A DNA stretch of 64,000 nt from Cytophagales bacterium (lineage in GTDB: Bacteria; Bacteroidota; Bacteroidia; Cytophagales; Microscillaceae). The notes below the pieces were generated by a model. The model did not search any database. It was not told the origin of the DNA and worked only from the letters and a program-made list of their open reading frames with translations. The DNA is taken from assembly GCA_004293905.1 (NCBI GenBank), contig RDZE01000021.1, forward strand, positions 28,769 to 92,768, in the 5' to 3' direction. Made by a program: the position numbers and the translations under genes. This document shows positions 15,559-42,124 of this stretch, in pieces. Every line of letters starts with the position of its first letter. Within the stretch, counting starts at the first letter, position 1.

Positions 15559-15579
15559 CAAAAAAATAGAATTTTTTTT

Positions 15580-16526: not shown

Positions 16527-16536
16527 AAAATATTCT

Positions 16537-16552
16537 TGGCACAAGGGTTGTT
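16537..16552 (+). promoter_or_regulatory. Possible -24/-12 (sigma-54-like) element upstream of dnaK
   Basis: TGGCAC-aaggg-TTGTT versus the consensus TGGCAC-N5-TTGCW. There is one mismatch, in the -12 GC. It lies 85 nt upstream of the dnaK ATG. Confidence 0.2.
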
Positions 16553-16636
16553 TCTGAATGAGTATATCTTATCGCTTTTTATCGATATTTTTTTGGAACA
16601 CAATTATTAACATCATACATCAAACAATACAACACA

Positions 16637-18538
16637 ATGGGTAAAATCATCGGAATAGATTTAGGAACTACCAACAGTTGCGTTGCTGTTATGGAAGGCA
16701 ACGAACCCGTAGTAATTGCCAATAGCGAAGGCAAACGTACTACTCCCTCCATAGTAGCATTTTTAGACAATGGCAACGGCGAGCGCAAAGTAGGCGACCC
16801 TGCCAAAAGGCAAGCCATCACCAACCCCAGAAATACGGTATACTCCATCAAGCGTTTTATGGGTAAAAAAATGACCGAAGTAGGCGAAGAAATTACTCGC
16901 ATGCCCTACACCGTAGAATCAGGAACAAATAACACAGCAAGAGTGCGTATCGGTGATAGACTCTATACTCCGCAAGAAATTTCGGCAATGATTCTGCAAA
17001 AAATGAAACAAACAGCAGAAGATTATTTAGGCACTACCGTTACCGAAGCCGTAGTTACTGTGCCTGCTTACTTCAACGATGCAGAACGCCAAGCAACTAA
17101 AGAAGCAGGACAAATTGCAGGCTTAGATGTAAAACGCATCATCAATGAACCCACCGCCGCTGCCTTAGCCTATGGCTTAGACAAACGTAGCAGAGATATG
17201 AAAATAGCTGTATTCGACTTAGGAGGTGGTACTTTCGATATCTCTATTCTCGAATTAGGCGATGGTGTTTTTGAAGTAAAATCTACCAATGGCGATGTGC
17301 ATTTAGGGGGCGATAACTTTGATGAGAGAATCATTGACTGGTTGGCTGATGAATTTAAAAAAGATGAAAATGTAGACCTTCGCAAAGACCCTATGGCTTT
17401 GCAACGCCTCAAAGAAGCCGCTGAAAAAGCTAAAATAGAACTTTCAAGCTCTTCTGTAACAGATATTAACTTGCCCTACGTAACCTCCGTAGATGGTGTT
17501 CCTAAACACTTAGTAAAACAACTCACACGTGCTAAATTCGAACAATTAGTAGATGATTTGGTACAACGCACCCTCGAACCTTGCCGCAAAGCAATGGGCG
17601 ATGCAAGCCTAAAACCTGCCGATATCGATGAGGTAATCTTAGTAGGTGGTTCTACACGTATCCCCAAAATTCAGGAGGTAGTAGAACAGTTCTTTGGCAA
17701 AAAACCTTCAAAAGGTGTAAACCCTGATGAAGTAGTAGCAGTAGGTGCGGCTATTCAAGGAGGTGTATTGACAGGTGATGTTACCGATGTATTGCTTTTA
17801 GATGTTACACCACTTTCATTAGGTATTGAAACGATGGGAGGTGTATTTACTAAATTGATAGAAGCCAATACAACCATTCCTACTAAAAAATCTGAAACTT
17901 TCTCTACAGCAAGCGACAATCAACCCTCTGTTGATATTCACGTATTGCAAGGTGAGCGACCTTTGGCAAAAGACAATCGTACTATCGGGCGTTTTAGCTT
18001 GGCAGATTTGCCCCCTGCACCACGCGGCGTGCCTCAAATAGAAGTAACTTTTGACATCGATGCCAACGGTATACTACAAGTTTCTGCCCGCGACAAAGGA
18101 ACAGGTAAAGAGCAAAAAATCAAAATAGAGGCTTCTTCTGGGCTTAGCAAAGACGAAATAGAGCGTATGAAACGTGAAGCAGAAGCCAACGCCGCTACTG
18201 ATGCTGCTGAAAAAGAGAAAATAGAAAAAATCAATGCGGCAGATTCCTTGATTTTCCAAACCGAAAAACAAGTGAAAGAATATGGCGACAAAATGTCCCA
18301 AAATAGTCGTGATGCCATAGAAGCTGCCTTAGGCAAACTCAGAACTGCACATGCCGCCAAAGATGCCAATCAGATAGATGCGGCAACTGAAGCACTCAAC
18401 GCCGCTTGGCAACAAGCCTCGCAAGAAATTTATGCACAAGGTGGCACTGAAGGCACTGGTACTACTGCCGAAAATGGAAATGCCCAAAGTGGTAAAGACG
18501 ATGTTACCGATGTAGATTTCGAAGAAGTGAAACAATAA
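16637..18538 (+). CDS. dnaK: Molecular chaperone DnaK (Hsp70)
   Basis: 633 aa. [35 protein letters not shown], and a C-terminal acidic tail ending DVDFEEVKQ. Confidence 0.98.
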
Positions 18539-18562
18539 ACAGAGTAATACATTCTCTAACAA

Positions 18563-18595
18563 AAGGGGCTGCTTTTTAGTAGCCCCTTATTTTTT
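18563..18595. terminator. Bidirectional intrinsic terminator between convergent genes
   Basis: Stem aaggggct (18563..18570) / agcccctt (18581..18588), followed by attttttc on the plus strand and preceded by an A-run. Confidence 0.7.
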
Positions 18596-19120
18596 CATTT
18601 TCTCTGCAAAAATAACAGCATAGCTCTCTGCTTCTGAAAGCACTGCCTTGATATGTTTACTTTCTTCAATAATGATACTATGAAAAGACTTGTTATCCTG
18701 CCAAATTTCAATGAGTTTATTGCCTTTTTCAAAATAGACTTTTAGCTGTTGATAGGCAGTACTACCTCCTTTTTCAATATAAAATATCATATTGCCATCA
18801 TTGTCATAGAGGTACTCTTTATAAAGTTTTCCATCAGTACTTTTCGTGATGATGAGGCGCAGTATAGGGGTATCATCGCCTGCAAAACTATAATAGAAAA
18901 CCTCTCTACCTCCATTGGTACTTTCTGTATTTTCCATCACTAAAGTTTGGTAAGCATTGTCTTCTATTTTATATTTGACGTAGTCATACAAATCACTGAT
19001 GTATCGCACTTTGTCCTGTTGTGCATAAAGAACTATATAACTATTTGCCAACAATGACAAAGTAAGCACCATTATTTTGCAAAATTTGTCTATGAAAGCA
19101 TTATCATTTTTGTTCATCAT
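18587..19120 (-). CDS. Hypothetical secreted protein
   Basis: 177 aa. Lys-containing n-region followed by the hydrophobic IMVLTLSLLANSYIVLYAQQ. No recognisable motif. ATG confirmed at 19120 (also at 19117 and 19072). Confidence 0.5.
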   Translation of the reverse strand: MMNKNDNAFIDKFCKIMVLTLSLLANSYIVLYAQQDKVRYISDLYDYVKYKIEDNAYQTLVMENTESTNGGREVFYYSFAGDDTPILRLIITKSTDGKLYKEYLYDNDGNMIFYIEKGGSTAYQQLKVYFEKGNKLIEIWQDNKSFHSIIIEESKHIKAVLSEAESYAVIFAEKMKK

Positions 19121-19550
19121 TTTATTATTTAGTAGTTTTTTTGCCTGTCAAACTGCCACTACTACAGATGTATTAGATTGGCAAGTATTGGCACAAGTAA
19201 CCTATGAAACCCAATACGATAGCACTACTGCTGGTTTTCAGCCCATACAAAGCCCTAAATTCAGTGCCGAAATTTTGGCTTTTGAGGGAAAATACGTAAC
19301 CATCAAAGGCTATTTGATACCCATGGAAGAAAGTGGGCGTGCTAATTATTTTGTTCTTTCTGCGTTACCTTTTAACTTGTGTTATTTTTGTGGTGGAGCA
19401 GGTCCTGAAACGCTCATAGAAGTACGTAGTCAGGAGGCTATTCCTTTTGATACTGAGCCTATTGTGCTGAAAGGAATTTTTAGAACTTATGCCCAAACAC
19501 AAGACTATTTGATGTATCAGCTTCATGAGGCTACTGTCGTAAAACCATAG
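19092..19550 (+). CDS. Hypothetical lipoprotein (possibly DUF3299-like)
   Basis: The track start at 19077 is TTG. The ATG at 19092 gives the textbook lipoprotein signal MKALSFLFIILLFSSFFAC. The block KGYLIPMEESGRANYFVLSALPFNLCYFCGGAGPE is reminiscent of DUF3299, from memory only. Confidence 0.55.
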   Translation: MKALSFLFIILLFSSFFACQTATTTDVLDWQVLAQVTYETQYDSTTAGFQPIQSPKFSAEILAFEGKYVTIKGYLIPMEESGRANYFVLSALPFNLCYFCGGAGPETLIEVRSQEAIPFDTEPIVLKGIFRTYAQTQDYLMYQLHEATVVKP

Positions 19551-28064: not shown

Positions 28065-28979
28065 TTAGTTGATGATTTTATCTCTTATTTTGATAGAGGT
28101 TTTTAGGATATTATCTAAATCTTTATCTGTAAGATTGATTTTGCTAGAAGTGTTGTCTTCTACGATTAGTATACCATTTTCTTCTTTTGTTACAGTAGGC
28201 TCTTCAGATTGGCTAAATTCTATTTTTACATTGTTATATATTTTTTGTAACTCTCCAAGTTCATTTCTTAGCTCTTTGATTTTAGCATTTTCTTCTTCAT
28301 AAAATGAAAGTAATAGCATTAATTGGTCTAAGATAATTTTTTGCTCTCCTATTCTATTGTTAAGCAATTCATTAGGTGTTTTTTTAGCTACTTCGCAAGT
28401 GATATAGAGCATTTCGAGCCATCCTCCTGTTACGATGAGGACTGTTAAATCGGCACGTTCTCTTTTTTGTAAATTTTCGTTGATTCTTTCAAGGTTAAGG
28501 TTCGTAACGATGAGTAAAGAGTCTAAATTATTGCTATTAGTGGCTAATTCTTTGATGGTGTTGAAGTCAAAAAATTCACCGATTTGTAAGCCATCTGCCA
28601 TTTTTTTGATAGAGTTCAAGAAGTAAAGCGCATCTTGAGTTTGGGAGTAGATATTGGAGTAGCCCAAATCAGCACTGTATACGCCCAAGTTAAGAGCCTT
28701 TTTGAAGTCAGTAGTATAGCTTGCGGTTTTATCTGTTGAGTTCAACAAGCCTTTATTATATTGAATTCCTAAATCTTTGATAAGGAAAGAAATTTCAAGG
28801 GGAGAAGGAATAGAGCGTACTATATCAGCGAGCACGTCTTTTGAAATGGGAGGGTTATCAGATTTGTTTTCTGTATTTTCTTTGTTGTCAGTTCCGCTTT
28901 TTTTAGAATTTTTTTTAGAGTCGCCTCCGCAAGCTCCTACTAAAAGGGCAACGATGAATAAAAATGCTAACTTTTTCAT
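28065..28979 (-). CDS. Hypothetical lipoprotein
   Basis: 304 aa. Signal plus lipobox MKKLAFLFIVALLVGACGG, a Lys/Asn-rich linker, then a largely helical body. It lies 15 nt downstream of the ABCG-like gene. Confidence 0.55.
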   Translation of the reverse strand: MKKLAFLFIVALLVGACGGDSKKNSKKSGTDNKENTENKSDNPPISKDVLADIVRSIPSPLEISFLIKDLGIQYNKGLLNSTDKTASYTTDFKKALNLGVYSADLGYSNIYSQTQDALYFLNSIKKMADGLQIGEFFDFNTIKELATNSNNLDSLLIVTNLNLERINENLQKRERADLTVLIVTGGWLEMLYITCEVAKKTPNELLNNRIGEQKIILDQLMLLLSFYEEENAKIKELRNELGELQKIYNNVKIEFSQSEEPTVTKEENGILIVEDNTSSKINLTDKDLDNILKTSIKIRDKIIN

Positions 28980-28994
28980 ATATACAAATTGTTT

Positions 28995-31900
28995 TTATTT
29001 GTTTATTTTTTTAGATTTAATTTTATTGAAAGAAATTTTACTTGTAATGTTAGATAAATTTTTTACCGCATCATAGTACAGTGTAATATATAATAGTATA
29101 GTAAAAAGCCATATTACGGTTAGGTTGTAGTAATAAGTATCAAACAAAAACCCTGCAAAATGCTTTTTGGGCGCAAGAAAATGAGTGCGATAATCATACC
29201 AACCTTCCGCATCGGAGGGTTCGTGGTAGATAGGGTCTATCATTTGTACTAATTTATCATTGCCTTCTATAAGACCATTGAGTAAAGATTCTTCTTTTTT
29301 TACAAGCCTCGCAAGTTCTAAGTTAAAGTATTGCGCTTTGAGGTCGTCATAGGTAGAGTCTGCTTCTTTGAATTCATCGTAGATTTTATCGCGTTCTTTG
29401 GCGGCATTGTTCATTTTTTTGGTAGCGTCTTTGTCTACTTTATCTAAGTAGGTTCTGATACGCTCCGCAATTTTTTCGTTGAATTTTTCTTCTGTAATAT
29501 CTTCTTCAGGGTTGATGCCTGTGAGGTATTTTTTGTAATCTTCTTTACGATTGAGTTCGTTTCGGAGTATTCTAAGGTCTTTTTCGTATTTTTTCTGTAC
29601 CGAATCTTCCCTTTTTTTCATTTGTTGATTTTTGACTAAATCATCTACCTTGTTTTTTAGGTTAGGCACCCAATATTTGGTAAGTACACGATTGATGCTT
29701 TCTTCTTTCTCAAGGTCGTAGTAGTCTATTTCGTAGTAGTTGTGTCTGAAATTATTGACGGCTATAGCTTCGTAAGCCCATCGCGATACCATAATGTCAG
29801 CCAAAAGGGGTACTTTGTCTTTATCAGCAATTACTTGGTTCATTTTATCATATTTGAAGATGATACCACTCATAATCATTTGAGGTATAAGCAACAAAGG
29901 AATCGTGATGTAAATAGTTACTACGGAATTGAAGGTAGAGGAGATATTCAGTCCTAACATATTAGCAAAACACGATACTGAGAAGAGTACTATCCAATAG
30001 TTCATCAATTCACCATCTATACTTAGTACGCTATTGCCTATGAGCACAAAAGTAAAAGTTTGGATGGCTGAAAGTGAAAATAAAATAAAAACTTTTGAAA
30101 CGAGGTAGGCGGCACGGCTTAAATTAAGGAAACGTTCTCTTTTTTGTATTTTTCTATCTCTGATGATTTCTTCCGCGCTGACTGTAAGCCCCATAAATAG
30201 TGAAATGATGATACAAATGAGCACATAAGCGGGGATATTGTCGTTGTACATAAAATTGTATTTTCCTTCTTCCTCGGGGTCGTTCTGAAAACGAATGACA
30301 TAGGAAAGTAAAAATGCCAACACAGGTGCTTCTAATAAATTGATAAGCATGTATTGTTGGTTACTTATCTTAGAAAGAAAATCGCGAATGGTAAAGATGA
30401 ATGTTTGTATTATCAACGAGGGTAGTTTGATAGAGGTTGGGGGTTTTTCGTTGATGGTTTCTACGGCTTCGAGCGATGGTTCTATATTTTGTTTGTATTT
30501 TTCATTCCAACCTTCGGGCGATATTTTTCTTTTGTTAGTGTATTGCCCGTATTCATTTACTACTTGTCTTTCTAAGAGGTTGAATACTTGTTCAGGGTTA
30601 AGGTTGCTCTTGTCGCCTTCTACTTGGTTGGTTTCTTTTTTGAAATAAGTGATGGCTTCGAGTGGGTTGCCATAGTATACAGGGTATCCGCCTTTGTCGA
30701 GGATTACCATTTTATCGAACATGCGGTATATCTCAACAGAGGGTTGGTGTATTACTACGAAAATGAGTTTTCCTTTGAGTGAAAGCTCTTTGAGTAAGTC
30801 CATTACATTTTCAGAATCGCGTGAGGAGAGTCCAGAGGTGGGCTCATCTACAAAAAGCACAGCGGGTTGTCTGATGAGTTCAAGGGCTATATTAAGGCGT
30901 TTTCTTTGCCCTCCGCTTATTTTTTTATTGAGTACATTCCCTACTTTTAGGTCTTTGATGTGGTCTAAGCCTAAATCTCCTAATACATCTATGACGCGTT
31001 CGTCTATGTCTTTTTCGCTCATATCGCCAAAGCATAATTTGGCATTGTAGTAGAGGTTTTGGTATACGGTTAATTCTTCTATGAGTAAGTCGTCTTGGGC
31101 TACATATCCGATAACGCCTTCTACTTTTTTGCGGTTTTCGTGGATATTGATGCCATTAATGAGTACTTCTCCTTTGGAGGGCTTCTCTATGCCTGAAAGT
31201 ACATTGAGTAGGGTTGTTTTACCTGCGCCACTACCTCCCATGATGCCTACTAATCTGCCTTGTGGCTCGGAGATGAATACGCCTCTTAGCCCTAATGCGC
31301 CATTGGGAAATTTGAATTCTATGTCGTTGGCTGTAAAAGAAACTCTGGTATCTAAGTGGCTTTCTAAGAAAATACTTGTTACATCGCTATAGTATACAGC
31401 CCTTGCTTGTTGTGTTTTTATGGAACTTCCGCTAGGGTATAAGTATGTAATTTGGTTTTTGAGAGGGAAGCCATTGAGCATTGGCAATTCTTCGCCAAGG
31501 TATTTAACGAAATAAATATCGGCAGATTTTACGTGTAGAAAAACGATATTTCCTTCAAGTTCTGGTACAATGAGATGTTTGAAGGCAGTTACTTCAAAAG
31601 GTTTTTCTTTGGAGGCAACTAATATGGTACTATGGTTAAAGTCGTATATTTGTGTGGAAAGTACGAATCCTTCTATGGCTTTGTACTCTTCTTTGTCGAA
31701 GTTAAATGCGCTTGATACGGTATCTATGATTTCACGTCTTTGTTTGCTGAAATTTCCGTCTGAGGCTACAAGTTCTAATAGTTTTACTACGATAAGTACT
31801 TTTTGCCCTTGCTCGAGTTCGCTATTGATTTGTTTGCAATAGTTTAGTATCTTCACCGATTCTTTCATTGTGATTTTATCGGGTCCGGGTTTTCCATATT

Positions 31901-32066
31901 CAGCTACTTGGTCATAGAGTTGGCTATAAGTGTTAATGGAATCTTCGTCTAATTGTTCTCTGAAATAATTCACTACAAAGTCTCTTTCGCGGGCAGTAGC
32001 ACCGCCTGCTTGTTTGGTGATAATTCCAAAGAGATTTGTTAATGCTTTTAATATATTTTCACTCAT
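28995..32066 (-). CDS. ABCG/ABC-2-type transporter fusion: TerB-like N-domain + unassigned beta-rich segment + NBD + 6-TM permease with a long coiled-coil insert
   Basis: 1023 aa. aa 1-135 are TerB-like (LLELVASDGNFSKQRREIIDTVSSAFNFDKEEY). The NBD has GGSGAGKTTLLNVLSG, ISGGQRKRLNIALEL, LFVDEPTSGLS and VIHQPS, which is the White/ABCG signature set. The ABC-2 permease covers aa ~550-775. aa ~780-970 are K/E-rich coiled coil, followed by a last TM helix (aa ~976-1000). Confidence 0.8.
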   Translation of the reverse strand: MSENILKALTNLFGIITKQAGGATARERDFVVNYFREQLDEDSINTYSQLYDQVAEYGKPGPDKITMKESVKILNYCKQINSELEQGQKVLIVVKLLELVASDGNFSKQRREIIDTVSSAFNFDKEEYKAIEGFVLSTQIYDFNHSTILVASKEKPFEVTAFKHLIVPELEGNIVFLHVKSADIYFVKYLGEELPMLNGFPLKNQITYLYPSGSSIKTQQARAVYYSDVTSIFLESHLDTRVSFTANDIEFKFPNGALGLRGVFISEPQGRLVGIMGGSGAGKTTLLNVLSGIEKPSKGEVLINGINIHENRKKVEGVIGYVAQDDLLIEELTVYQNLYYNAKLCFGDMSEKDIDERVIDVLGDLGLDHIKDLKVGNVLNKKISGGQRKRLNIALELIRQPAVLFVDEPTSGLSSRDSENVMDLLKELSLKGKLIFVVIHQPSVEIYRMFDKMVILDKGGYPVYYGNPLEAITYFKKETNQVEGDKSNLNPEQVFNLLERQVVNEYGQYTNKRKISPEGWNEKYKQNIEPSLEAVETINEKPPTSIKLPSLIIQTFIFTIRDFLSKISNQQYMLINLLEAPVLAFLLSYVIRFQNDPEEEGKYNFMYNDNIPAYVLICIIISLFMGLTVSAEEIIRDRKIQKRERFLNLSRAAYLVSKVFILFSLSAIQTFTFVLIGNSVLSIDGELMNYWIVLFSVSCFANMLGLNISSTFNSVVTIYITIPLLLIPQMIMSGIIFKYDKMNQVIADKDKVPLLADIMVSRWAYEAIAVNNFRHNYYEIDYYDLEKEESINRVLTKYWVPNLKNKVDDLVKNQQMKKREDSVQKKYEKDLRILRNELNRKEDYKKYLTGINPEEDITEEKFNEKIAERIRTYLDKVDKDATKKMNNAAKERDKIYDEFKEADSTYDDLKAQYFNLELARLVKKEESLLNGLIEGNDKLVQMIDPIYHEPSDAEGWYDYRTHFLAPKKHFAGFLFDTYYYNLTVIWLFTILLYITLYYDAVKNLSNITSKISFNKIKSKKINK

Positions 32067-32099: not shown

Positions 32100-32131
32100 A
32101 AAAAAAAGCTAAGATGTTGAGTTATCTTAGC
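32100..32131 (-). terminator. Strong intrinsic terminator after the SiaC-like gene
   Basis: 8-bp stem gctaagat (32108..32115) / atcttagc (32124..32131) with an 8-nt loop. It is followed on the minus strand by TTTTTTTT (plus-strand a-run 32100..32107). Confidence 0.8.
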
Positions 32132-32177: not shown

Positions 32178-32546
32178 TTAGTATGACTTGAATTCGAAGG
32201 GTACTTCTACCAATTCAGAGAATTCAGTTCCTGCTTCTTCCATATCTTCATCGTCTTCGTGGTAGTACCAAGTGATAGTAGTACCATTGATTTTTTCTAA
32301 TTTGGAGAGGATATCTAAGATAAGTTTAGAGGAAGCTGTGTTGAAGTATTCCAATTTGAAGATAAAGTTGGTTTCTTCGTTGGCTTGTTTGGAATATTCT
32401 TCCAACCATTCAAGAACGGGTTTGTAGAAATCGGCGGCATCTTCGGGTAGGGAGCGACCTGAGATTTCAAATATACCGTTGTTTTTGTCTAATATTATTT
32501 TGGGCGTATCTTCGGTGCCTTCTAAGTTAATTACATCTAACGACAT
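32178..32546 (-). CDS. SiaC-family regulatory phosphoprotein (DUF1987)
   Basis: 122-aa acidic protein. TPKIILDKNNGIFEISGRSLPEDAADFYKPVLEWL and EYFNTASSKLILDIL blocks are typical of DUF1987. Confidence 0.75.
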   Translation of the reverse strand: MSLDVINLEGTEDTPKIILDKNNGIFEISGRSLPEDAADFYKPVLEWLEEYSKQANEETNFIFKLEYFNTASSKLILDILSKLEKINGTTITWYYHEDDEDMEEAGTEFSELVEVPFEFKSY

Positions 32547-32609: not shown

Positions 32610-33176
32610 TTAGTCATCTTTTCCAGATTCTTTGGTACGAGGTACTATAGTTTTTAGTGAAAAAAATGAAATTCTGTTATTGATAGGTTCGAAATCGAAC
32701 TGCAGTTTTTGTCCTGATTTTCGTGCCATATCGATGAAGCCTAAGCCTGCTCCGCCTTTCGGGGAGATATCGCCTGTTTTGATAATATCTTTATAAAGGG
32801 CTTTTAGTCCGTCTTTATCAAGGTTATTGATGCGCTCTATTTTTTCGTGCAATATGGCGACTTTGTCGTTTGAGACGGGATTGCCTGAGGAGATGACATA
32901 CATATCTTCTTGTTTTCCGACCATAAAAATAGCGCTGTTTTTCCCTCTGTAGAGGTCGTCATCGACTTCATCGGAGTGTTTGACGATGTTTTGTAAGCAC
33001 TCTACCATTACATTGAAAACTTTACGTTTGATGCTTGCATCTTCACCTATAGCATCCATGTTTCTTTCAGCCATTGCTAATACGGATTTGGTAATTTCCT
33101 GCGTAAATTCGCCCTCATATACTAATATGAGAGAGCGGTCTAGCATGGTTTTGTGCAACTCATAGATGTACTTCAT
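32610..33176 (-). CDS. SiaB-family protein kinase (GHKL-fold, anti-sigma-kinase-like)
   Basis: 188 aa. N-box-like VMVECLQNIVKHS and G-box GGAGLGFIDMARKSG. The size and its position between a PP2C gene and a DUF1987 gene match the SiaB pattern. Confidence 0.7.
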   Translation of the reverse strand: MKYIYELHKTMLDRSLILVYEGEFTQEITKSVLAMAERNMDAIGEDASIKRKVFNVMVECLQNIVKHSDEVDDDLYRGKNSAIFMVGKQEDMYVISSGNPVSNDKVAILHEKIERINNLDKDGLKALYKDIIKTGDISPKGGAGLGFIDMARKSGQKLQFDFEPINNRISFFSLKTIVPRTKESGKDD

Positions 33177-33346: not shown

Positions 33347-36300
33347 TTAAAATTTTGCACCAATCACTAATATATCGTCCGTTTGTTTTGTTTCTCCTTT
33401 CCAACTTTCAAATGCGTCATCTAAGATGTTGTGCATTTGGTCAAATTTACCTTTTTTGATGCCATCTAAAATTACTTCTCTCATTTTTCTTGGGGAGAAT
33501 TTTTTATTATCTGCGCCTCCGAATTGGTCTCCGTATCCGTCAGAAGAAATATAAAAAGAGTCTCCTTTTTCTATTTGTATGATGTGGTTTGTAAACCCAT
33601 CTTTTTTCTTATAGTGTTCTCCACCTCCACCAACAGGCATTTTATCTCCTTTTACTTCCTCTATTTCTGTGCCATTATTTTTGAAGAAGAACATGGGGCG
33701 GTGCGCGCCTGCATATTCAAGTGTATTTTCTTGTAGGTTTATTTTACAAAGTGCAATATCCATTCCATCTTTTGTAACTGCCTCTGGAGAGTCTTGTTTT
33801 AGGGTTTTTGCCATCTCTACGTCAAGAAGATTGAGCACATCGCTGGGGTGTATTGCTTTACCAGAGTTGAGTACGTTGTTGATGGTAAAGAATCCAATGA
33901 TTGAGATAAGGGCACCTGGTACACCGTGTCCTGTACAGTCAACGGCGGCTAAGTAAATATCATCGTCTTTTTTGAAGAACCATGGGAAGTCTCCTGAAAC
34001 CACATCGCGGGGTTTGTATAAGATGAATGAATCAGGGAGGTAGTTTTTCAGAAAACTTGCACTAGGGAGTATGGCTTCTTGTATTCTTTTGGCGTAGTTG
34101 ATACTTTCTGTAATTCTACGGTTGGTTTGTTGTACTGCGAGTTCTATGAGTTTGCGCTCGGTGATGTCGTGTGATACTAAGAGTATAGATTCTATGGCTT
34201 GAGTTTCGCTGTATTCGGGTATGGCATTGACTTGCATGATGTGTTTTTCTTTGTCAGTGATGGGAAAATCCATCTCAAGACTTACTTTTTCTTTTTTCTC
34301 CACGATATCGTCAATGATTTCTTTCCATCGTTTGATAATTCGCCCATCTAAAATAATATCATCAATGCGTTTTCTGATGTATTCTTCTTTTCTGATGTTG
34401 GTCAGTCTTTCTATAGTAGGGTTGATGTAGAAAATTGTACCATCTGTACTGAGTCGGGTGATGAGGTCAGGTGAATTTTCAGAGAGAGCTTGCATTTGTC
34501 CTCTCATTCGGGCTTCTTTTTCGGCGAGTCTTCTTTCGGTGATATCGCGCGAGTTCACAACTATACCTTGTATGGCGGGGTCATTGAGTAGGTTAGTACC
34601 TGTGGCTTCGAGCCATACGCGACCTGCGATTTTGGATTTATAGTTGATTTGTATGGTTACTTTCTTGTATGGTTCGGCTATCAGTGTTGCGAACATGGTT
34701 TTGAAGGCTTGCTGACCTTCAGCATTCATATACTTGAGGTCTTGTATGCCTATCATGTCTTCTACGGTATAACCCAATATTTTTTCTACGGAGGGGCTTA
34801 TTTCTCTGATTTCTCCTGTTTCTTTGTATATGGTGATGATTTCAGAAGAGTTTTCAAGTAAGATGGCTGTTTTAGCGTTCGCAATTTGCACTTTTTCTAC
34901 TTCTGCTTCTAGTCGTATGTTAGTGAGTTTGAGTGTTTCTTGCGTTGATTCCATTTCTTCGGCGTTCTGCGTCAATATTTGTTGTTGGTATTGTAGGCTT
35001 CGGCTCATTTCTTGGGATTCGTCAAGCAGTTTTTGGGTACGTTCTTGTACTTTTATGTTGAATACTGTGCGTGCAATGATTTCGCTTACTTCTTCTACGA
35101 ATCGTACATCGCGAGAAGAGAATTTTTCGAATCCTGCAAATTCTAATACTCCTAATACTTTTTCTTCTCTATCTACCAGTGTGATGAGTGGTGTGATGAG
35201 TAGGGCTGTGGGTTTTCGGTCGCCTAATAAACCAGAGGTGATGGTTATGTATTCGTCTGGTATTTCGGTTCTTAGGATTGTGTCTTGCTCTGCTACGGCT
35301 TGTCCTATTAGTCCTTCTGCAAATCGGAATTGTGCTTTTATGTATTTTCTTTTATTATAGGCATAGCTTGCGTTCATTTCTATGAGTACGTCTTGTGCGT
35401 CTTGCTCTATAGAGTTAAGCGTGTAAAAAGCACCTTGTACGGCATTGATTTTTCGGCAAATGTACTCTACTACAGCTTCCCCGAGGCTTTCTATGTTGTT
35501 TCGTTCGCGCAAGATATCACCTATTTCTGCACGTCCTACTACTATCCAGTTTCGTTCTTCGTCTTTCTTTGCGGCTTGTTGAATGCTATTGCGCATAGTA
35601 AGTAAGGCTATAGCAAGTGCATCGTTTTCGCTGGAGGGGTGGAATTGTGCATTGAAATCACCTTCTCCTATTTTGTGTGCAAATTCGGCTGTGTTTTTTA
35701 GATTTGTTACTAATTCGTTAAGTAGTTGGCTCATTTCTCCAAATTCGTCTGCTGTACTTTGTTCAAGTTCTTTGGGCAGTACTCCTTGTGAGAGTAGTTC
35801 GATGGTATCTTTGAGTGATTGTAGGGGTTCGATGAGTATTCTGGAGAAAATAACGCCTATGATGACAGAGATAATGATTACTACTGCTCCTGCGATGAAG
35901 AACACATTGCGGAGGCGATAGGAAGGTGCGTATATTTCGTTGTTATCTACTTTTACAATGACCCCCCAATTTACTTCGGGTATAAAACGCCAAGTAGCCA
36001 ATACTTGCTCGCCTCTGTAGTCAGTGCCTGTGGTGTAGGTTTCGTATCCATATCCTCTTACGGCTTTGTCTAAAAACTCACTTTCGCCTACAACTGCATA
36101 TTTTTTGAGAGCAGCGTCTTTATCTTCCTTGAGTGGGTTGAGGTAGGTGATTTTATTTCCGTATCTTTTGATGAGCAATATTTCGCCTGTTTTTCCTAAT
36201 CCGAGCGTATCACTGGCTATTTCGTAGATATAATCCATCGTTACTTCATAGACAATGAGCCCTAATATTTGTCTGGTTTTGTCAATGACGGGTGCATAAA

Positions 36301-36907
36301 TGGAAAAATATTTTTCTTTTTTATTTTGAGAGTTGTATACCCCTGTAAAAATAATAGAATCGCCTGCTGAAGTAATGGGGTCGCCTTCTTCATTGAGGTA
36401 GTAATCTTTGATTTTACGGGCACTAAGGTCTGTATTTTTATCTGTTTTGAATATTATTTTTCCTTCTTTATCGGTGAGGTATATATTCTTGATTTGGTAG
36501 AAGTTGCTTTGTAATGCTTTGAGTAGGTCGTATACTTCGTTATCGTTTTTGTAGATGATGTTGTTGGTTTCTATGTTGTTTTGTGTAGTGTCGTTTTGTT
36601 TTTGTAAGGAATCTTTTTTGAGTGTTATATTATTATTATCATTGTTAATGAGTAATTCTTTTTGTAGTTTTTCACGAACGGCTTTTAGATTGGAAGAGAA
36701 TCGTAGGTTTTCTTTGAGTTTATCAAGGAAGATGTCTATTTTCTGTGATTTTAATTTGGCAATCACATTGACTGACTCAAGATAACGCTCTTCTATGGAG
36801 CTTTCGCTGAGTTGATAAGCAATAAAACTCACAGATACTGTTGATATGAGTACTATGAATATAACCAGTAAGGTAATTTTTGTGCTTATTTTTATTTTTT
36901 GGAGCAT
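33347..36907 (-). CDS. Membrane sensor Ser/Thr phosphatase: TM - Cache-like ectodomain - TM - HAMP - GAF - coiled coil - PAS - PAS - PP2C/SpoIIE (SiaA-like)
   Basis: 1186 aa. TM helices at aa ~11-32 and ~335-356. HAMP aa ~357-410. GAF aa ~455-612 (AVQGAFY, FAEGLIGQAV, VLGVLEFAGF). PAS ends NSRDITERR and VSHDITERK. PP2C blocks SGDFPWFF, AAVDCTGHGVPGAL, DGMDIALC and SSDGYGDQFGG. Confidence 0.85.
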   Translation of the reverse strand: MLQKIKISTKITLLVIFIVLISTVSVSFIAYQLSESSIEERYLESVNVIAKLKSQKIDIFLDKLKENLRFSSNLKAVREKLQKELLINNDNNNITLKKDSLQKQNDTTQNNIETNNIIYKNDNEVYDLLKALQSNFYQIKNIYLTDKEGKIIFKTDKNTDLSARKIKDYYLNEEGDPITSAGDSIIFTGVYNSQNKKEKYFSIYAPVIDKTRQILGLIVYEVTMDYIYEIASDTLGLGKTGEILLIKRYGNKITYLNPLKEDKDAALKKYAVVGESEFLDKAVRGYGYETYTTGTDYRGEQVLATWRFIPEVNWGVIVKVDNNEIYAPSYRLRNVFFIAGAVVIIISVIIGVIFSRILIEPLQSLKDTIELLSQGVLPKELEQSTADEFGEMSQLLNELVTNLKNTAEFAHKIGEGDFNAQFHPSSENDALAIALLTMRNSIQQAAKKDEERNWIVVGRAEIGDILRERNNIESLGEAVVEYICRKINAVQGAFYTLNSIEQDAQDVLIEMNASYAYNKRKYIKAQFRFAEGLIGQAVAEQDTILRTEIPDEYITITSGLLGDRKPTALLITPLITLVDREEKVLGVLEFAGFEKFSSRDVRFVEEVSEIIARTVFNIKVQERTQKLLDESQEMSRSLQYQQQILTQNAEEMESTQETLKLTNIRLEAEVEKVQIANAKTAILLENSSEIITIYKETGEIREISPSVEKILGYTVEDMIGIQDLKYMNAEGQQAFKTMFATLIAEPYKKVTIQINYKSKIAGRVWLEATGTNLLNDPAIQGIVVNSRDITERRLAEKEARMRGQMQALSENSPDLITRLSTDGTIFYINPTIERLTNIRKEEYIRKRIDDIILDGRIIKRWKEIIDDIVEKKEKVSLEMDFPITDKEKHIMQVNAIPEYSETQAIESILLVSHDITERKLIELAVQQTNRRITESINYAKRIQEAILPSASFLKNYLPDSFILYKPRDVVSGDFPWFFKKDDDIYLAAVDCTGHGVPGALISIIGFFTINNVLNSGKAIHPSDVLNLLDVEMAKTLKQDSPEAVTKDGMDIALCKINLQENTLEYAGAHRPMFFFKNNGTEIEEVKGDKMPVGGGGEHYKKKDGFTNHIIQIEKGDSFYISSDGYGDQFGGADNKKFSPRKMREVILDGIKKGKFDQMHNILDDAFESWKGETKQTDDILVIGAKF

Positions 36908-36983: not shown

Positions 36984-37805
36984 CTAAGATAATAATTTAT
37001 GTTCGTTTTTTAAAAATTCTTCTGCAATGAGGCTGGCTAATTCTTCTAATATTTGTTTTTGAGTTTCATTTATTTGTTTAAAATAAGCTAATTCCACTAC
37101 TCCTACAATTTGTTTTTCCATAGTTTGTATAGGTATGATTTGTAGTGTTTTGGGCTGTGATTTCCCTAAGCCTGATACAATATCGATATACCCTTCGGGT
37201 AAATTATTGATTTCTATGGCATTGCCTGTTTTGACTACTTGTCCTAATAGCCCTTCACCTGCTTGAAAGCTTGTTTTTTGACTATCATTGGTAAAATAGG
37301 CATAGTTGGCTACCATTGAGAAAGTGTCTTGTGATTCATTTCGGAGGTAGATAGCTCCTTGTACAGCTTCAGTATGGTTACAAACTTTCCAAAGTATTTT
37401 TTCTAATTTTGTTTGTTCGTTTTCGTTTGTAAGTTGAATGTCTTTGATAAGTGGTTCTAATAGGTTTGTATTTTGATGACTTCCATTGTTTTGGTTTTCA
37501 TTTTGGTTATTGCTTTGTGCATTATTCGAGGAAATATATCTATCTACATACACCAATTTGATGCGTCCTCTTCTGCTTACTAATAATAATAGTATAGCCA
37601 ACAGTGCTAAGGCAGCTTGTACTCCTGAGATGAGGAAGAGATTGAAGGTTACTTCGTTGAAATAGGCTATATTTTCAGCATTTTTTCTCAAATTGAGTTG
37701 TTCTGCCAATTGGCTATGCCATTGGTAGAGTTGGTAGATGCTAAAAAAAGTACCTAATATAAATAATAGTACTGCTAAGGTACTGATGAAACTAATCCTT
37801 TTCAT
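36984..37805 (-). CDS. Two-TM membrane protein with Asn/Gln-rich linker and cytoplasmic GAF domain
   Basis: 273 aa. TM helices at aa ~5-27 and ~55-77. Linker SSNNAQSNNQNENQNNGSHQNTN. GAF blocks AVQGAIYL, NYAY, AGEGLLGQVV, LPEGY and IVGVVELAYF are paralogous to the GAF of the 1186-aa phosphatase. ATGA overlap with cheB. Confidence 0.75.
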   Translation of the reverse strand: MKRISFISTLAVLLFILGTFFSIYQLYQWHSQLAEQLNLRKNAENIAYFNEVTFNLFLISGVQAALALLAILLLLVSRRGRIKLVYVDRYISSNNAQSNNQNENQNNGSHQNTNLLEPLIKDIQLTNENEQTKLEKILWKVCNHTEAVQGAIYLRNESQDTFSMVANYAYFTNDSQKTSFQAGEGLLGQVVKTGNAIEINNLPEGYIDIVSGLGKSQPKTLQIIPIQTMEKQIVGVVELAYFKQINETQKQILEELASLIAEEFLKNEHKLLS

Positions 37806-38419
37806 TTCTTTTTTTTGATTTTTTGGTCGATGTACAACAATAAATCAATGATTTTATCTACGCTGAGTGTGTGGTTGATTTTGGTGATTTTCAATGCAGA
37901 AGTAGGCATTGTATCTATTAAACATTCGGCGGGGTCTTGCACTACGGTAAGAGCTCCTTTTTCGCTGGCAGCTTTCATGCCCAATGCGCCATCTTTGTTA
38001 GCTCCTGAAAGAAGTATAGCAATGAGTTTATGGCGGTAATTATGGGCGGCTGTTTGAATCATATAATCTATAGCGGGTCTTGAATTATTGAAAAGTTCTT
38101 CTGTAGAGAGGGCAAAAGTATTGCCAAGTTCTACGCATAGATGATAATTGGCTGGTGCTAAGTAGATTTTTCCTTTTTTGATGGGTTCTTTGTCTGTGGG
38201 TTCTTCTATATTGATAGTACTTTTTATGTTGAGTGCTTCAGTGAACCCATTGCGTACATGTCTTAATCTGTGTAGGCACATCATGATAGGGAGCTCAAAA
38301 TCGGTAGGTAAGCTACTAAGTATTTTCGTAACTACTTGGAAACTACCAGCCGAGCCGCCTATAGCAATGGCTTTATAAGGGAGTGATTCGTCTATTTCGT
38401 ATTTTTGTGATGCGCTCAT
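37802..38419 (-). CDS. cheB: Protein-glutamate methylesterase, CheB catalytic domain only (no receiver domain)
   Basis: 205 aa. AIGGSAGSFQ (Ser nucleophile block), CLHRL (His) and LSGANKDGALG (Asp block). There is no N-terminal REC. Confidence 0.8.
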   Translation of the reverse strand: MSASQKYEIDESLPYKAIAIGGSAGSFQVVTKILSSLPTDFELPIMMCLHRLRHVRNGFTEALNIKSTINIEEPTDKEPIKKGKIYLAPANYHLCVELGNTFALSTEELFNNSRPAIDYMIQTAAHNYRHKLIAILLSGANKDGALGMKAASEKGALTVVQDPAECLIDTMPTSALKITKINHTLSVDKIIDLLLYIDQKIKKKK

Positions 38420-38422
38420 AGC

Positions 38423-39253
38423 TTAGTCTTTGACCTTTTTATAAATTTTCTCTTCATTGTTTACTACTACAAATTTATTGGCTATTTCGCACCAAATAAG
38501 TGATTCTTTTGAACCTACTGCTAAATAACAATATTTATGAAGGCTCTCATGGAAAGTTTTTAAGACAGTATTCTGTAATTGTTGATTGAAATAAATCATT
38601 ACATTTCGGCATAATATGAGGTCAAATTTAGCAAAACTTCCTCCACTGACCAAATTATGCTCGCGCCATTCTACATTTTTGACCAATTCTTTGTCCATAA
38701 TTGCTTTTCCTGCCTCTTCTTTATAATATTTTTGCAGTAAAAAACTACCTTCATATCTTTCATAGTTTTTTTGGTTTACTTCCATATTCTTAATGGGGTA
38801 TTTTCCTTCGCGTGCTTTGGCTAAGATGGCATTGTCAACATCTGAGGCAACTATTTTGGCTTTACCGAGTAGGTTCATTTCTGTAAGAAGAATAGCCATA
38901 GAGAAAACTTCTTCTCCGGAGGAACAGCCCGCATGCCAAATATTGATTTCGCGGTCGTTTAGGAGTAAATTGGGAATAATGCTTTCTTTGAGTTCGCGCC
39001 AAAAAGTGGGGTCTCTGAACATTTCAGTAACATTGACGGTGATTTCAGAAAGAAATTCTTGAAAAAATTTGTGGTCTGCGTCATTTAGGCGGTCTATGAG
39101 TGCATCGATAGAGGCATATTTGTATATCTCGATAACTCTTTGGATACGTCTTTTAAAAGAAGACATGGCATAATTGCCGAAATCAAAATCAAATCGTTTT
39201 TGAATGATGTCAGTAATTTTTTTTAGTTGCGCTAATTCAATTTCCTGTTGCAT
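38423..39253 (-). CDS. cheR: CheR-type protein-glutamate O-methyltransferase
   Basis: 276 aa. FRDPTFW, IWHAGCSSGEEVFSMAILL and FDLILCRNVMIYFN are hallmark CheR blocks. 3-nt gap to cheB. Confidence 0.85.
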   Translation of the reverse strand: MQQEIELAQLKKITDIIQKRFDFDFGNYAMSSFKRRIQRVIEIYKYASIDALIDRLNDADHKFFQEFLSEITVNVTEMFRDPTFWRELKESIIPNLLLNDREINIWHAGCSSGEEVFSMAILLTEMNLLGKAKIVASDVDNAILAKAREGKYPIKNMEVNQKNYERYEGSFLLQKYYKEEAGKAIMDKELVKNVEWREHNLVSGGSFAKFDLILCRNVMIYFNQQLQNTVLKTFHESLHKYCYLAVGSKESLIWCEIANKFVVVNNEEKIYKKVKD

Positions 39254-39286: not shown

Positions 39287-42124
39287 CTAACCTGCTCCTT
39301 CTTTTTGTTGAGGAGGTCCTTGTGCATCTTTTGCTTTTACTAATATTTCGCCTTTTATAGGTTCTCGGCGCATAATGATACGGCGGAAGAGCAACTCAAG
39401 TGGTGCTAATGAAATGGCTAAAATGATGTTCATTCCTAATTTGAAAAAAGAAATACCACCTGTAAAGGCTTCTACATAAGGCTCAAAAACGAGGAAGAGA
39501 AACTCAAACATGGTGATAATGGTAACCATTGATATCACATAGGCGATTCTTGAGGTAAGTTTGGTTTTGGCAATACGTGAGAGGGCTATAGAGAGTGCCA
39601 TCAGTAAGGCAAAAAATGCGCTTTGTAGGGCATAAAACCAAGTGGTTTCCCAAAAAGGAGGGTTTATTTTGAAAGTAAAGACTTGTTCTTGACTGGGCTG
39701 TCCGAAGATGTTTTTGGCTCTTACGTGGAATTTGTATTCGCCACTTGGCAAAAATGGAAAAGAGATAATGGCTTGTCTTTCCCAACTTGACCATTCATAT
39801 TTTTTCTTGTCGTTGAGTCCTTCAAGCCAATATTGGTATTCCGTTGCAAATTCGTTTCGGAAGAAGGGGGCAGCTATTTGGAAGGTAAAACTGAGGGCAT
39901 TGTCGCCATAGTCCAATACTAAATCTTGTAATGGAAGAAGAATTCCTTGTTTATTCTTGACTGTTCTGATGAAGATATTGAATTTTTCTCTAAGGTCTAT
40001 TTGTGCGTTGGCATCTATACGATGTAAATGACCATTGTTTACTACCCATATATATCCTTTTTTATCGATATGAATTTCTTGTACCTCATCAAAAAGGGAA
40101 AAGAAAGCCATTTTTGAGGCGTAGTTATTGGTAGTTTGGCTTATGTTTTGCCAGTTTCCTGTGGCATTGCTCCAAGTGAAAGCATCTTGCGAGAAAATAA
40201 GCCTTGCTTTGCTGTGGTAGTATTTTTGAAATTCAGGGTCTTTGACTAATTTTTTATTTTGAAAATCAAAAATGAACACACCATTAGAGAGAAAAAAAGT
40301 TATTTTATTGTTAATAAGTCTTACAGCTATGTTTTCAGAGTAGCTTTCAGGAAAATCATACATTTGGTATTCGGCAAATTTTCCATCAGGTTTTAATTTT
40401 ATAGCCACGGCTTTGTTCTCAGCCCCTAACCATAAACCACCTTGGTATTCTAAAATGGAATATACGTTTTCGTCTAAGTTTTTAAGTTGGTCTGTTTGTT
40501 TCCAAGCGCCATTGACAAATTCTAAAAAATAAATACCTTTGTTAGTGCCTACATATATTCGGTTAGATTGTATGCGAGAAACGATGATGTAGTGAATATA
40601 AGTATCTTGAATGAGGGTATTGCCTACAAATCCGCCTTTTCCTGCTACTACTTCATAGAGTCCTGTATTGGCGGCTACTAATACACGATCGCGGAAAGTT
40701 ACCATTTGTTTGCATTTTCCATTTATGTTATCTACTTGTTTGTAAATAAATGGAATAGATTCTAAGGCATAGGCTTTCCTGCCTTCGGCAGTGCTTCGGT
40801 GTTGTATGGCTTTTTCAGTAGTACTGATAACACGAGTAGGAACTTCTTCTAAGAGAGAACTTTCTTTGGTTTTTATTTTTCTTTTGAGGTCTTTATGCCC
40901 TTCTACGGAGTGTGTATAAGTTCGTATGTTGTTTTTTTCTTTGGGTTCTGTAATCTGCACTATTCTTGTTACGGTTTCTACAGTTTTCAGAAATTTTGCT
41001 TCTTTTTTGATATAACCCTCTACTTCCTCAAATCGGTTAACCTTTACGAGATAGAAAACACCTTGACTTGTACTTACAAAAGTGGTATCTCCTAAATGTG
41101 CTACGGAGGTTACGTTGCCATCAATACCTGCATAAGAAGAGAAAGTGCGTACAGGCAGTTTTAGGTCAGCACGTGTGATGCCTTTGTCATGTGTAAGCCA
41201 AAGTCCCCCTTCACGATCGATGCACATGGCAAATACTTCATCATCAGGAAGTCCTGTTTGATAATTGATTATCTTTTGTGTTTTACCTGTTTTCTTTTCT
41301 ACCATAATAGCCCCTCCAGTAACTAAGGCAGTAATGAAACTATTTTCATTGACATCCATACTAAAGTTAAGAATATTACCTTTTAGGTATTCTTCGGCTA
41401 CTAAAAAAAATAAAGAAAACTCTTTTCCATCAAAGAGGTAGTGCCAATCGTTATTAGCCCCAAACATTATGTTGTCTTTGTCATAATTGCAAAAGGGTTT
41501 AAGTTCTAAATATTTAAAATAGTCCCCCTCTTCTACTAATACGAATTGTTTGCCTTGCATTCTATGCAGCCCTTGGTCGGGAAGGTTGAGGTATGGGGTA
41601 TCTTTATGGAGTAAAAAACCTGTGAATTTGGTTCCTGCTACGGGCGGATACCAAACTTCTTCTGTCTTCAGGGTGGTTCTATTTACTTTTATTAAGGCTC
41701 TTTCACTATAGAAGTAAACATGATTTTGGGCTATGACAATTTGCTTGATTTGCCCAAATGCTTTGCTGGGCTCAGTAATGGACACATACTCTTCTTGTCC
41801 AAATCGATTGTAACGGATATAACCGAAGTTATCGCGGCATCCTACATAAATTCTTCCGTTTTGACTGTCTTTGGCAAAGCTATAAGGAGTAGTACGTGTG
41901 GCAATTACGCCCCAAGCAACACCATCATAAGTAAGTATCCCTTTAGTATTAGCAAAATACATAATACCATTGTTTCCTTGTACAATGGCTAAATTTTGGT
42001 TGTCGATGTTAGAGAGTGGTATTTTATAGTTTTGCAAAAATATATCTCCCTCTTGTGCATAAACATTGTTCCAAGCAAGGAAATATATACAAAACAACAC
42101 TACCCGAGTATAATTTTTCAGCAT
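39287..42124 (-). CDS. Orphan extracytoplasmic sensor: signal peptide + two-component-regulator beta-propeller repeats + Y_Y_Y-like domain + 3 TM helices, no output domain
   Basis: 945 aa. Signal peptide VVLFCIYFLAWNNVYAQ. Repeated G-x-W-hydrophobic-G/T propeller strands (GLWLTHDKGI, GGLWLGAENK, GYIWVVNNGHL). Y_Y_Y-like FATEYQYWLEG...SGEYKFHVRAKN. TM helices lie within aa ~828-912, followed by only a ~35-aa tail. Confidence 0.7.
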   Translation of the reverse strand: MLKNYTRVVLFCIYFLAWNNVYAQEGDIFLQNYKIPLSNIDNQNLAIVQGNNGIMYFANTKGILTYDGVAWGVIATRTTPYSFAKDSQNGRIYVGCRDNFGYIRYNRFGQEEYVSITEPSKAFGQIKQIVIAQNHVYFYSERALIKVNRTTLKTEEVWYPPVAGTKFTGFLLHKDTPYLNLPDQGLHRMQGKQFVLVEEGDYFKYLELKPFCNYDKDNIMFGANNDWHYLFDGKEFSLFFLVAEEYLKGNILNFSMDVNENSFITALVTGGAIMVEKKTGKTQKIINYQTGLPDDEVFAMCIDREGGLWLTHDKGITRADLKLPVRTFSSYAGIDGNVTSVAHLGDTTFVSTSQGVFYLVKVNRFEEVEGYIKKEAKFLKTVETVTRIVQITEPKEKNNIRTYTHSVEGHKDLKRKIKTKESSLLEEVPTRVISTTEKAIQHRSTAEGRKAYALESIPFIYKQVDNINGKCKQMVTFRDRVLVAANTGLYEVVAGKGGFVGNTLIQDTYIHYIIVSRIQSNRIYVGTNKGIYFLEFVNGAWKQTDQLKNLDENVYSILEYQGGLWLGAENKAVAIKLKPDGKFAEYQMYDFPESYSENIAVRLINNKITFFLSNGVFIFDFQNKKLVKDPEFQKYYHSKARLIFSQDAFTWSNATGNWQNISQTTNNYASKMAFFSLFDEVQEIHIDKKGYIWVVNNGHLHRIDANAQIDLREKFNIFIRTVKNKQGILLPLQDLVLDYGDNALSFTFQIAAPFFRNEFATEYQYWLEGLNDKKKYEWSSWERQAIISFPFLPSGEYKFHVRAKNIFGQPSQEQVFTFKINPPFWETTWFYALQSAFFALLMALSIALSRIAKTKLTSRIAYVISMVTIITMFEFLFLVFEPYVEAFTGGISFFKLGMNIILAISLAPLELLFRRIIMRREPIKGEILVKAKDAQGPPQQKEGAG

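Follow-up and report, generated by a model that had tools for sequence, protein, structure and literature searches.

The window analyzed here, the whole 64,000-nucleotide (nt) stretch of contig RDZE01000021.1 from a Cytophagales bacterium of the Microscillaceae, encodes on its minus strand a CheR methyltransferase and a CheB methylesterase, followed by the genes of a transmembrane (TM)-GAF protein, a membrane sensor phosphatase, and a SiaB/SiaC-type partner switch (Table 1). This pair of enzymes very probably serves the Sia module and not methyl-accepting chemotaxis proteins (MCPs). The first-pass annotation of the window had described cheR as followed, after 3 nt, by a 205-amino-acid (aa) CheB containing just the esterase domain, which the open reading frame coordinates, the Pfam matches, and the junction sequence (TAA-GCT-ATG) bear out. 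The cheB stop codon overlaps the start of the TM-GAF gene (ATGA), as had been read from that junction, and the motifs picked out there (GGSAGS, CLHRL, LSGANKDG, and LCRNVMIYFN) are every one present in the window proteins. The cheR product matched PF01739 (E 6e-44) and PF03705 (E 5e-9), both over the cutoff, and its S-adenosylmethionine (SAM)-binding motifs WHAGCSSGEE, A(T/S)DxD, and CRNVMIYF were invariant in 76 of 76 orthologues; the nearest solved structure was that of B. subtilis CheR (5FTW, E 2e-29), and 1AF7 was also matched. Positions 1 to 173 of the 174 in the CheB_methylest model PF01339 were covered by the cheB product (E 1e-46), whose catalytic triad (S23, H50, and D143) was invariant in the orthologue alignment (81/81) and whose nearest solved structure was the catalytic domain of T. 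maritima CheB (3SFT, E 2e-24; 1CHD also matched). The two proteins are, by these matches, a member of the CheR family and a CheB catalytic domain, and both enzymes look active, judged by their intact catalytic motifs. No Pfam match to Response_reg was obtained in the 205-aa CheB, and the 3-nt gap to cheR leaves no room for an upstream exon or domain. The N-terminal receiver that CheA phosphorylates in the canonical two-domain CheB is missing; CheB would therefore not be under CheA control, and any feedback would have to come from the conformation of its substrate.

Conservation and surroundings of the pair

CheR and CheB are arranged in this way in other genomes too. Scanning the CheB sequence against one genome per species yielded 80 related loci (60 to 77% identity) from Microscillaceae, Marivirgaceae, Cyclobacteriaceae, Fulvivirgaceae, Flammeovirgaceae, Spirosomataceae, some Chitinophagaceae, and others. 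The order CheR-CheB-TMGAF-phosphatase-SiaB-SiaC-ABC was kept in ∼70 of them, and the eight-gene cluster is conserved across Cytophagales. CheR and CheB were not adjacent in three genomes, in two of which the remaining cluster genes sit elsewhere in the genome. The phosphatase had 69 orthologues in the same cluster position (42 to 56% identity). When 201 evenly sampled Cytophagales genomes were scored for the SiaB orthologue and for the Sia-linked CheB type (E ≤ 1e-50 for each), both were present in 100 and neither in 95, whereas SiaB occurred without this CheB type in 4 and the CheB type without SiaB in 2 (G498 and G467); these genomes are mutually related, so that the counts are not independent events. 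One of the two genomes with "CheB only" by this threshold, G498, holds the whole cluster, and its siaB aligns only over residues 1 to 105. The CheR/CheB pair clearly belongs to the Sia cluster, and the earlier description of a module that is split, ordered R then B, receiver-less, and tied to a PP2C partner-switch locus is supported.

The Sia-linked proteins grouped in the CheB tree as a clade (support 100/99) distinct from the CheBs with a receiver (REC) domain. Their sister group (97/94), in which they were not nested, was a two-member clade of cfc-like receiver-less CheBs, in a tree of small sampling with no Pseudomonas sequence. A small "CheB" from a che-like context (L106) had a very long branch and was disregarded. 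A relevant relative is L105, from another Bacteroidota family (G146:C12), where a receiver-less CheB is encoded in an operon of CheR, CheB, and a kinase of architecture CHASE3-GAF-S-helix-HisKA-HATPase-REC x3. The window CheR shares 36% identity with the CheR of this operon versus 29% with the fused CheR domain encoded in the source genome, and the phosphatase segment made up of linker and GAF can be aligned with the GAF unit of the L105 kinase (29% identity over 251 aa, E 1e-24). By these sequence comparisons, the window CheR and CheB are related to kinase-linked receiver-less pairs. The L105 kinase helices show a polar-E-E-L heptad (QQEELRQLNEELEQQ...QQEELQMTNEELEE); in this CHASE3-GAF hybrid kinase (5306 to 8893), the stretch from the GAF domain to the QQEEL helices also contains several EKEKRAAELxIANKELAxQN repeats that are almost identical. 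We rejected the possibility that the pair is the CheB-CheR fusion of this genome in split form, given 27 to 29% identity and the distant position of the fusion in the CheB tree. The fused protein (L093; C42:14572-21300; 2243 aa) comprises CheB, CheR, a NEELQS-repeat coil, many PAS domains, and HisKA, right after which it ends, with no HATPase_c match at E ≤ 1e-4. A heptad with a polar residue at a, two Glu residues, and Leu or Met at d recurs in its coil after the CheR domain. The product of the gene upstream (L001, 448 aa) has a very similar C terminus (QQSHELRRP...).

Downstream of the pair, the window encodes together the three components of a SiaABC-type switch, recognized by Pfam matches to SpoIIE, DUF6272, and SiaC. 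The SiaB-like protein matches chain A of PDB entry 6KKO (E 4e-15), and the SiaC-like protein matches the DUF1987 chains 6KKO_C and 6K4F_U (E 5e-13); we take 6KKO to be the P. aeruginosa SiaB-SiaC complex. GGDEF, the sign of a SiaD diguanylate cyclase, was absent in a Pfam scan of the ten genes around the cluster. The TerB-ABC exporter lies downstream of siaC in 65 loci (46 to 61% identity) and is the probable output of the cluster, and the lipoprotein gave tblastn matches in 60 loci, with 46 to 66% identity among the matches listed (n = 15). Exporter and lipoprotein genes (28065 to 32066, minus strand) form a separate terminator-bracketed unit, which is kept with the signaling genes in ∼60 loci. 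Upstream of cheR, genes vary from locus to locus. The Reg_prop/Y_Y_Y gene was rejected as a cluster member, with a homologue in 0 of the 80 related loci, and is on this comparison a lineage-specific neighbor; its product has hydrophobic C-terminal helices and carries neither a kinase nor an AraC domain.

Table 1. Features of the cluster in the 64,000-nt window
Feature	Position (nt)	Strand	Evidence
cheR, protein-glutamate O-methyltransferase, 276 aa	38423-39253	minus	CheR_N and SAM-binding domain (Pfam)
cheB, receiver-less protein-glutamate methylesterase, 205 aa	37802-38419	minus	PF01339
TM-GAF protein, 273 aa; two hydrophobic helices, low-complexity linker, GAF	36984-37805	minus	GAF_2, E 9e-12
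Sensor phosphatase, SiaA-like, 1186 aa; TM-dCache-TM-HAMP-GAF-S-helix-PAS-PAS-PP2C (SpoIIE)	33347-36907	minus	Pfam
S-helix of the phosphatase, aa 616-690, between GAF and PAS1; candidate methyl-accepting segment	34838-35062	minus	
SiaB-like kinase, 188 aa, DUF6272	32610-33176	minus	PF19788, E 5e-45
SiaC-like phosphoprotein, 122 aa, DUF1987	32178-32546	minus	PF09345, E 1e-40
Terminator-like hairpin followed by T8, after siaC	32108-32131	minus	Consensus scan
TerB-ABC exporter (ABC_tran, ABC2_membrane), 1023 aa	28995-32066	minus	Pfam
Lipoprotein, 304 aa, downstream of exporter	28065-28979	minus	tblastn
Reg_prop/Y_Y_Y membrane protein, 945 aa, 33 nt upstream of cheR	39287-42124	minus	Pfam

The phosphatase S-helix as candidate substrate

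By analogy with RsbM, a CheR homologue of B. cereus that methylates the S-helix of RsbK in vitro (14C-SAM; PMC4574943), we read CheR and the receiver-less CheB as a dedicated methylation/demethylation pair for a module without a chemoreceptor, in which the S-helix of the sensor phosphatase would be the most likely substrate, or one of the substrates. We assign this reading a probability of roughly 55%. The coiled coil to which attention had been drawn at aa ∼620 to 675 (nt 34883 to 35050) is located at that place, within an S-helix that is the most conserved segment of the phosphatase (mean column conservation of 0.86 versus 0.63 overall and 0.74 in PP2C). Helix statistics refer to 70 phosphatases, i.e., that of the window and its 69 orthologues. 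Their consensus, ELxEQQEVLRQNAEEMxATQEELxR(T/S)NxxLExQIEEV, has a near-invariant core, QNAEEMxATQEEL, and the window core (aa 645 to 659, nt 34931 to 34975) reads LTQNAEEMESTQETL. Glu occupies position 650 in all 70 proteins, position 651 in 67, and position 658 in 68, whereas position 657 is Glu in 67 and Asp in 3. Both Glu-Glu pairs are kept in 63/70 phosphatases, and at least one pair is kept in 69/70. Residues L645, M652, L659, and L666 share one position of the heptad core and A649, Q656, N663, and I670 share the other. Because of this assignment, the pairs 650/651 and 657/658 are predicted to lie at exposed b/c positions, seven residues apart. The candidate sites in the window protein are thus A649-E650-E651-M652 (pair 1) and Q656-E657-T658-L659 (pair 2). 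A Pfam scan of the isolated coils returned generic coiled-coil noise only, with no curated family for the helix. An AlphaFold2 (AF2) monomer model of aa 440 to 800 has a mean predicted local distance difference test (pLDDT) score of 82.5, with confident GAF and PAS domains, and is compatible at aa 654 to 658 with either a continuous helix or a hairpin.

If the S-helix is indeed the target, CheR would methylate exposed Glu residues of this post-GAF segment, and CheB would hydrolyze the resulting methyl esters. The methylation state would bias the conformation of the S-helix (its register or stability) and hence PP2C activity toward phospho-SiaC, so that the gain of the phosphatase would be set relative to ligand occupancy of dCache. 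PP2C would dephosphorylate the SiaC-like protein, the SiaB-like kinase would rephosphorylate it, and free or phosphorylated SiaC would control the output, probably the TerB-ABC exporter and the lipoprotein, which are the sole candidates in the cluster. Substrate, sites, direction of regulation, and output all stand in this scheme as we infer them.

Several observations weigh against the S-helix as the methyl acceptor. The window helix is a degenerate copy of the consensus (QNAEEMESTQETL; QQQILTQNAEEMESTQETL) with only pair 1 intact. Two loci from the family of the window (L006 and L008) read E-I at pair 1, and Microscilla (L007) reads E-I and E-A at the two pairs, yet its CheR and CheB are adjacent and intact. 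In G441, CheR (69% identity) and CheB (66%) are retained on separate contigs, and the phosphatase helix, QNAKDMELAQDNL, has no Glu at either pair. If methylation occurs, either the first Glu (E650, without exception among the 70 phosphatases, which come from the CheB-matched loci) would be the methylation site or other substrates would exist. MCP methylation sites of the E. coli type follow the consensus A/S-x-x-E-E-x-A/T/S-A-S/T. Pair 1 (Q-N-A-E-E-M-x-A-T) fits only its C-terminal half and pair 2 (A-T-Q-E-E-L-x-R-S/T) only its N-terminal half, in keeping with the first-pass annotation, which had noted a superficial resemblance to MCP methylation helices that misses the strict consensus; on sequence grounds, the phosphatase helix is MCP-like, yet not an MCP site. 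The AF2 model breaks the region into helices 598 to 653 and 659 to 684, with pLDDT scores of 52 to 57 around the motif. Moreover, conservation of the segment is weak evidence, since S-helices are conserved for structural signaling regardless of methylation, and the substrate assignment draws entirely on genomic context and analogy.

Three variant clusters bear on the choice among candidate substrates. In G496 (L130; G496:C3, 3828 to 14999), genes for a 634-aa GAF-S-helix protein, CheR, a TM-GAF protein, the phosphatase, SiaB, SiaC, and ABC follow one another; the Sia-linked CheB type is absent, CheR is divergent (34% identity), and the phosphatase helix pairs read L-D and D-D. This joint loss of CheB and of the helix Glu pairs agrees, at the level of sequence, with the phosphatase helix as target. 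In G467 (L134; G467:C4, 13114 to 17191), the genes for CheR and CheB are followed by those for a 156-aa GAF protein and a 667-aa GAF-S-helix-PAS-PAS-OmpA-family protein whose S-helix is intact (QNAEEMRATQEEL), and no PP2C, SiaB, SiaC, or ABC matches were found in the 18-kb stretch examined. Because G467 swaps PP2C for an OmpA-family domain, the constant partners of CheR/CheB are the GAF/S-helix sensor and the small GAF protein. An OmpA-like domain ending a PAS sensor, as in G467, is unusual. In the third, a reduced cluster in G331 (L129; G331:C2, 10985 to 13998), SiaB-SiaC-ABC is immediately preceded by a CheR of 42% identity, with phosphatase, TM-GAF, and CheB genes absent beside it, an arrangement that fits no explanation offered here.

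Other candidate substrates

CheR and CheB could instead act in trans on all GAF-S-helix-PAS proteins of the genome, the phosphatase included or not, which we regard as unlikely. A hidden Markov model of the helix found ∼10 further proteins in the source genome, and the paralogues keep three Glu-Glu pairs versus the one of the window phosphatase; both findings also count against the phosphatase as the dedicated target. All eight of the proteins scanned by Pfam consist of GAF, then QEEELRQNMEELxATQEEM, then PAS, and one paralogue is a second GAF-SpoIIE protein. G441 and L007, which retain the enzymes with a phosphatase helix devoid of pairs, fit action in trans, as does the GAF-S-helix protein encoded directly upstream of cheR in G496, which carries EQEEQTKKNLEALKTTQEEIE. 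However, the exact EExRQNxEE motif occurs in just 3 of 300 other Bacteroidota genomes sampled (as a DNA pattern, 12 matches in the source genome and 1 to 2 in each of the three others, among 301 genomes). Because the motif is so rare, the paralogue expansion is lineage specific, whereas the CheR/CheB-phosphatase linkage is order-wide, and the CheB type tracks the Sia cluster nearly one to one. Co-occurrence of the helix motif with CheB across the phylum was discarded as a test: the four matching genomes of 301 all have CheB, and the motif is too lineage specific to inform. Paralogues of the source genome (L085 to L092) lie at C12:34098-36668, C19:7665-10279, C26:26181-28235, C12:41707-44574, C15:130416-135608, C13:110025-112223, C18:87534-91565, and C43:31087-32964; several of the GAF-S-helix-PAS paralogues have no recognizable output domain, and one has the helix four times.

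The first-pass annotation had named the two downstream proteins as candidate substrates. The phosphatase coiled coil is the best supported of the candidates examined, whereas the case for the TM-GAF protein is weak. As a methyl acceptor, or as an obligatory adaptor that presents the substrate, the TM-GAF protein seems to us more doubtful still than action in trans. Its gene is translationally coupled to cheB through the overlap of stop and start codons, it is kept beside CheB, between cheB and the phosphatase gene, in ∼70 loci, and it persists in the variant clusters as the small GAF protein of G467 and the TM-GAF protein of G496. Nevertheless, its orthologues share only 27 to 46% identity, with conservation limited to GAF-core motifs and a variable C-terminal tail, and they have no conserved Glu-pair helix, whereas reported CheR substrates (MCPs and RsbK) are methylated on long coiled-coil helices.

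Chemoreceptors fare worst. No match to MCPsignal and none to CheW was obtained in the source genome assembly (3.29 Mb, 50 contigs, 90% complete), with MCPsignal/CheW controls positive in 8 of 14 reference genomes, and the earlier remark that no methyl-accepting substrate is visible stands at that completeness. Since CheW-domain matches amount to zero, CheA is also excluded, and the MCP-CheW-CheA chemosensory core is lacking in this assembly. Its only CheB and CheR domains are two of each, the second set being the one fused in the 2243-aa protein on contig C42. Classical MCPs encoded elsewhere had been named beforehand as what would account for the pair; among 12 relatives with the cluster, 11 indeed encode 1 to 8 MCPsignal proteins. 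This is not decisive, given the lone MCP of Marivirga tractuosa, whose gene opens an operon (MCP-CheW-CheD-CheY-CheB(REC)-CheA-...-CheR) that supplies a REC-CheB and a CheR of its own. In that operon (L127; chromosome, 8830 to 19212), the genes encode a PAS-PAS-MCP, CheW, CheD, CheY, REC-CheB, CheA, an unassigned 202-aa protein, a GAF-PAS protein, a PAS protein, and a short CheR; M. tractuosa, a nonflagellated gliding bacterium, has with this a complete che-like operon. G307 (7.9 Mb, deposited as one chromosome) has the cluster and no MCPsignal match. MCPs are unlikely substrates because the M. tractuosa operon has adaptation enzymes of its own, because the source genome and G307 keep the pair without an MCP, and because the Sia-linked CheBs form a clade separate from the REC-CheBs. 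That the pair services ordinary chemoreceptors encoded in the ∼10% missing from the assembly is highly improbable in view of its two noncanonical CheB/CheR sets and of a CheB type accompanied by SiaB in 100 genomes and without it in just 2.

Significance and relation to known systems

In chemotaxis, memory is classically provided by the reversible methylation of glutamates, which is usually taken to depend on an array of MCP, CheA, and CheW. In the conserved cluster, these adaptation enzymes are linked, order-wide, with a sensor phosphatase and with a Ser/Thr partner switch whose apparent end point is an exporter, and the cluster gives a first hint of the output of a SiaABC-type switch when the diguanylate cyclase is absent. 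Receiver-less CheBs, CheR methylation of a GAF-linked S-helix (RsbK/RsbM), and the SiaABC switches of P. aeruginosa are already described separately; no description of the combination of CheR, CheB, TM-GAF, a PP2C-fused sensor, SiaB/SiaC, and an exporter across Cytophagales was found in the open-access literature. If the S-helix is the true target, methylation adaptation would be a transferable accessory of GAF/S-helix sensors, whether these end in a kinase (RsbK or CfcA), in PP2C as here, or in an OmpA-like domain as in G467. It would also account for many "orphan" CheR/CheB genes in nonflagellated, gliding Bacteroidota, and QNAEEMxATQEEL would be a short, defined peptide for probing CheR specificity. 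More tentatively, GAF-adjacent helices with the polar-E-E-L/M heptad may form a general methyl-accepting class outside MCPs. CheR and the receiver-less CheB might then give the dCache sensor phosphatase a chemotaxis-style adaptation, or memory, that controls the SiaB/SiaC switch and the TerB-ABC exporter; in the source genome, the ∼10 paralogues may be modified by the pair as well, and such enzymes may act in cis on CheB-CheR fusion kinases, with the output domain (kinase, PP2C, or OmpA-like) interchangeable around a CheR-CheB-GAF-S-helix core.

Like canonical MCP adaptation, the window system has both enzyme families with intact catalytic motifs and Glu-Glu pairs seven residues apart on a predicted helix, with partial flanks (EE-x-x-A-T at pair 1 and A-x-x-E-E at pair 2). 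Unlike it, neither an MCP signaling domain nor CheA or CheW was found, and CheB lacks the receiver; the window helix comes after a GAF domain, and its a positions are polar (A, Q, and N), whereas the four-helix bundles of MCPs have small-residue packing. Receiver-less CheBs have been mentioned for the F3 chemosensory class (PMC9239204). CheB-CheR fusion sensor kinases such as the C42 protein likewise combine CheB and CheR without an MCP and carry an EE-heptad coil (NEELQS repeats) beside the enzymes. The fusion, however, has the order B then R in one polypeptide with PAS and HisKA, whereas the window pair is split, R then B. In P. putida, cfcB and cfcC encode CheR and CheB beside the CHASE3/GAF kinase CfcA, without a chemotaxis role (PMC4951495). 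The window resembles cfcABCDE and L105 in combining CheR and CheB with a GAF-containing sensor in a setting that, for the cfc pair, is not chemotactic, and shares with L105 a receiver-less CheB, from the sister clade, and EEL-heptad helices after GAF. The output differs, being a CHASE3/GAF hybrid histidine kinase phosphorelay in cfc/L105 and PP2C/SiaB/SiaC in the window, and the TM-GAF gene is absent in the cfc/L105 clusters. No demonstration of CfcA methylation was found in the accessible literature.

The downstream half of the cluster resembles P. aeruginosa SiaABCD (6KKO, 6KKP, and 7E6G), with a HAMP-containing membrane PP2C, a SiaB-type kinase, and a DUF1987 SiaC. The window cluster differs from it in having no SiaD, with the TerB-ABC exporter as the conserved neighbor, in the dCache, GAF, S-helix, and two PAS domains added to the phosphatase, and in the CheR/CheB and TM-GAF genes that precede it. 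The other model for comparison, RsbK of B. cereus, is a CHASE3-HAMP-GAF-S-helix-HK-REC protein upstream of a PP2C partner switch (PMC4574943). RsbK is a hybrid histidine kinase with its PP2C, RsbY, as a separate response regulator, whereas the window sensor is fused straight to PP2C and gave no Pfam match to HisKA, HATPase, or REC, so that it is not a kinase of the RsbK type. RsbM is an orphan without an esterase and the window pair includes the receiver-less CheB; the sensor domain is CHASE3 in RsbK and dCache in the window phosphatase; and the B. cereus switch is RsbV/RsbW/sigma-B, that of the window being of the SiaB/SiaC type with a probable exporter output. In both systems, nonetheless, a CheR-family gene adjoins a membrane sensor in which GAF is followed by an S-helix, an adjacency that Pfam, the AF2 model, and conserved synteny support for the HAMP-GAF-S-helix sensor of the window, and in both a PP2C phosphatase drives a Ser/Thr partner switch.

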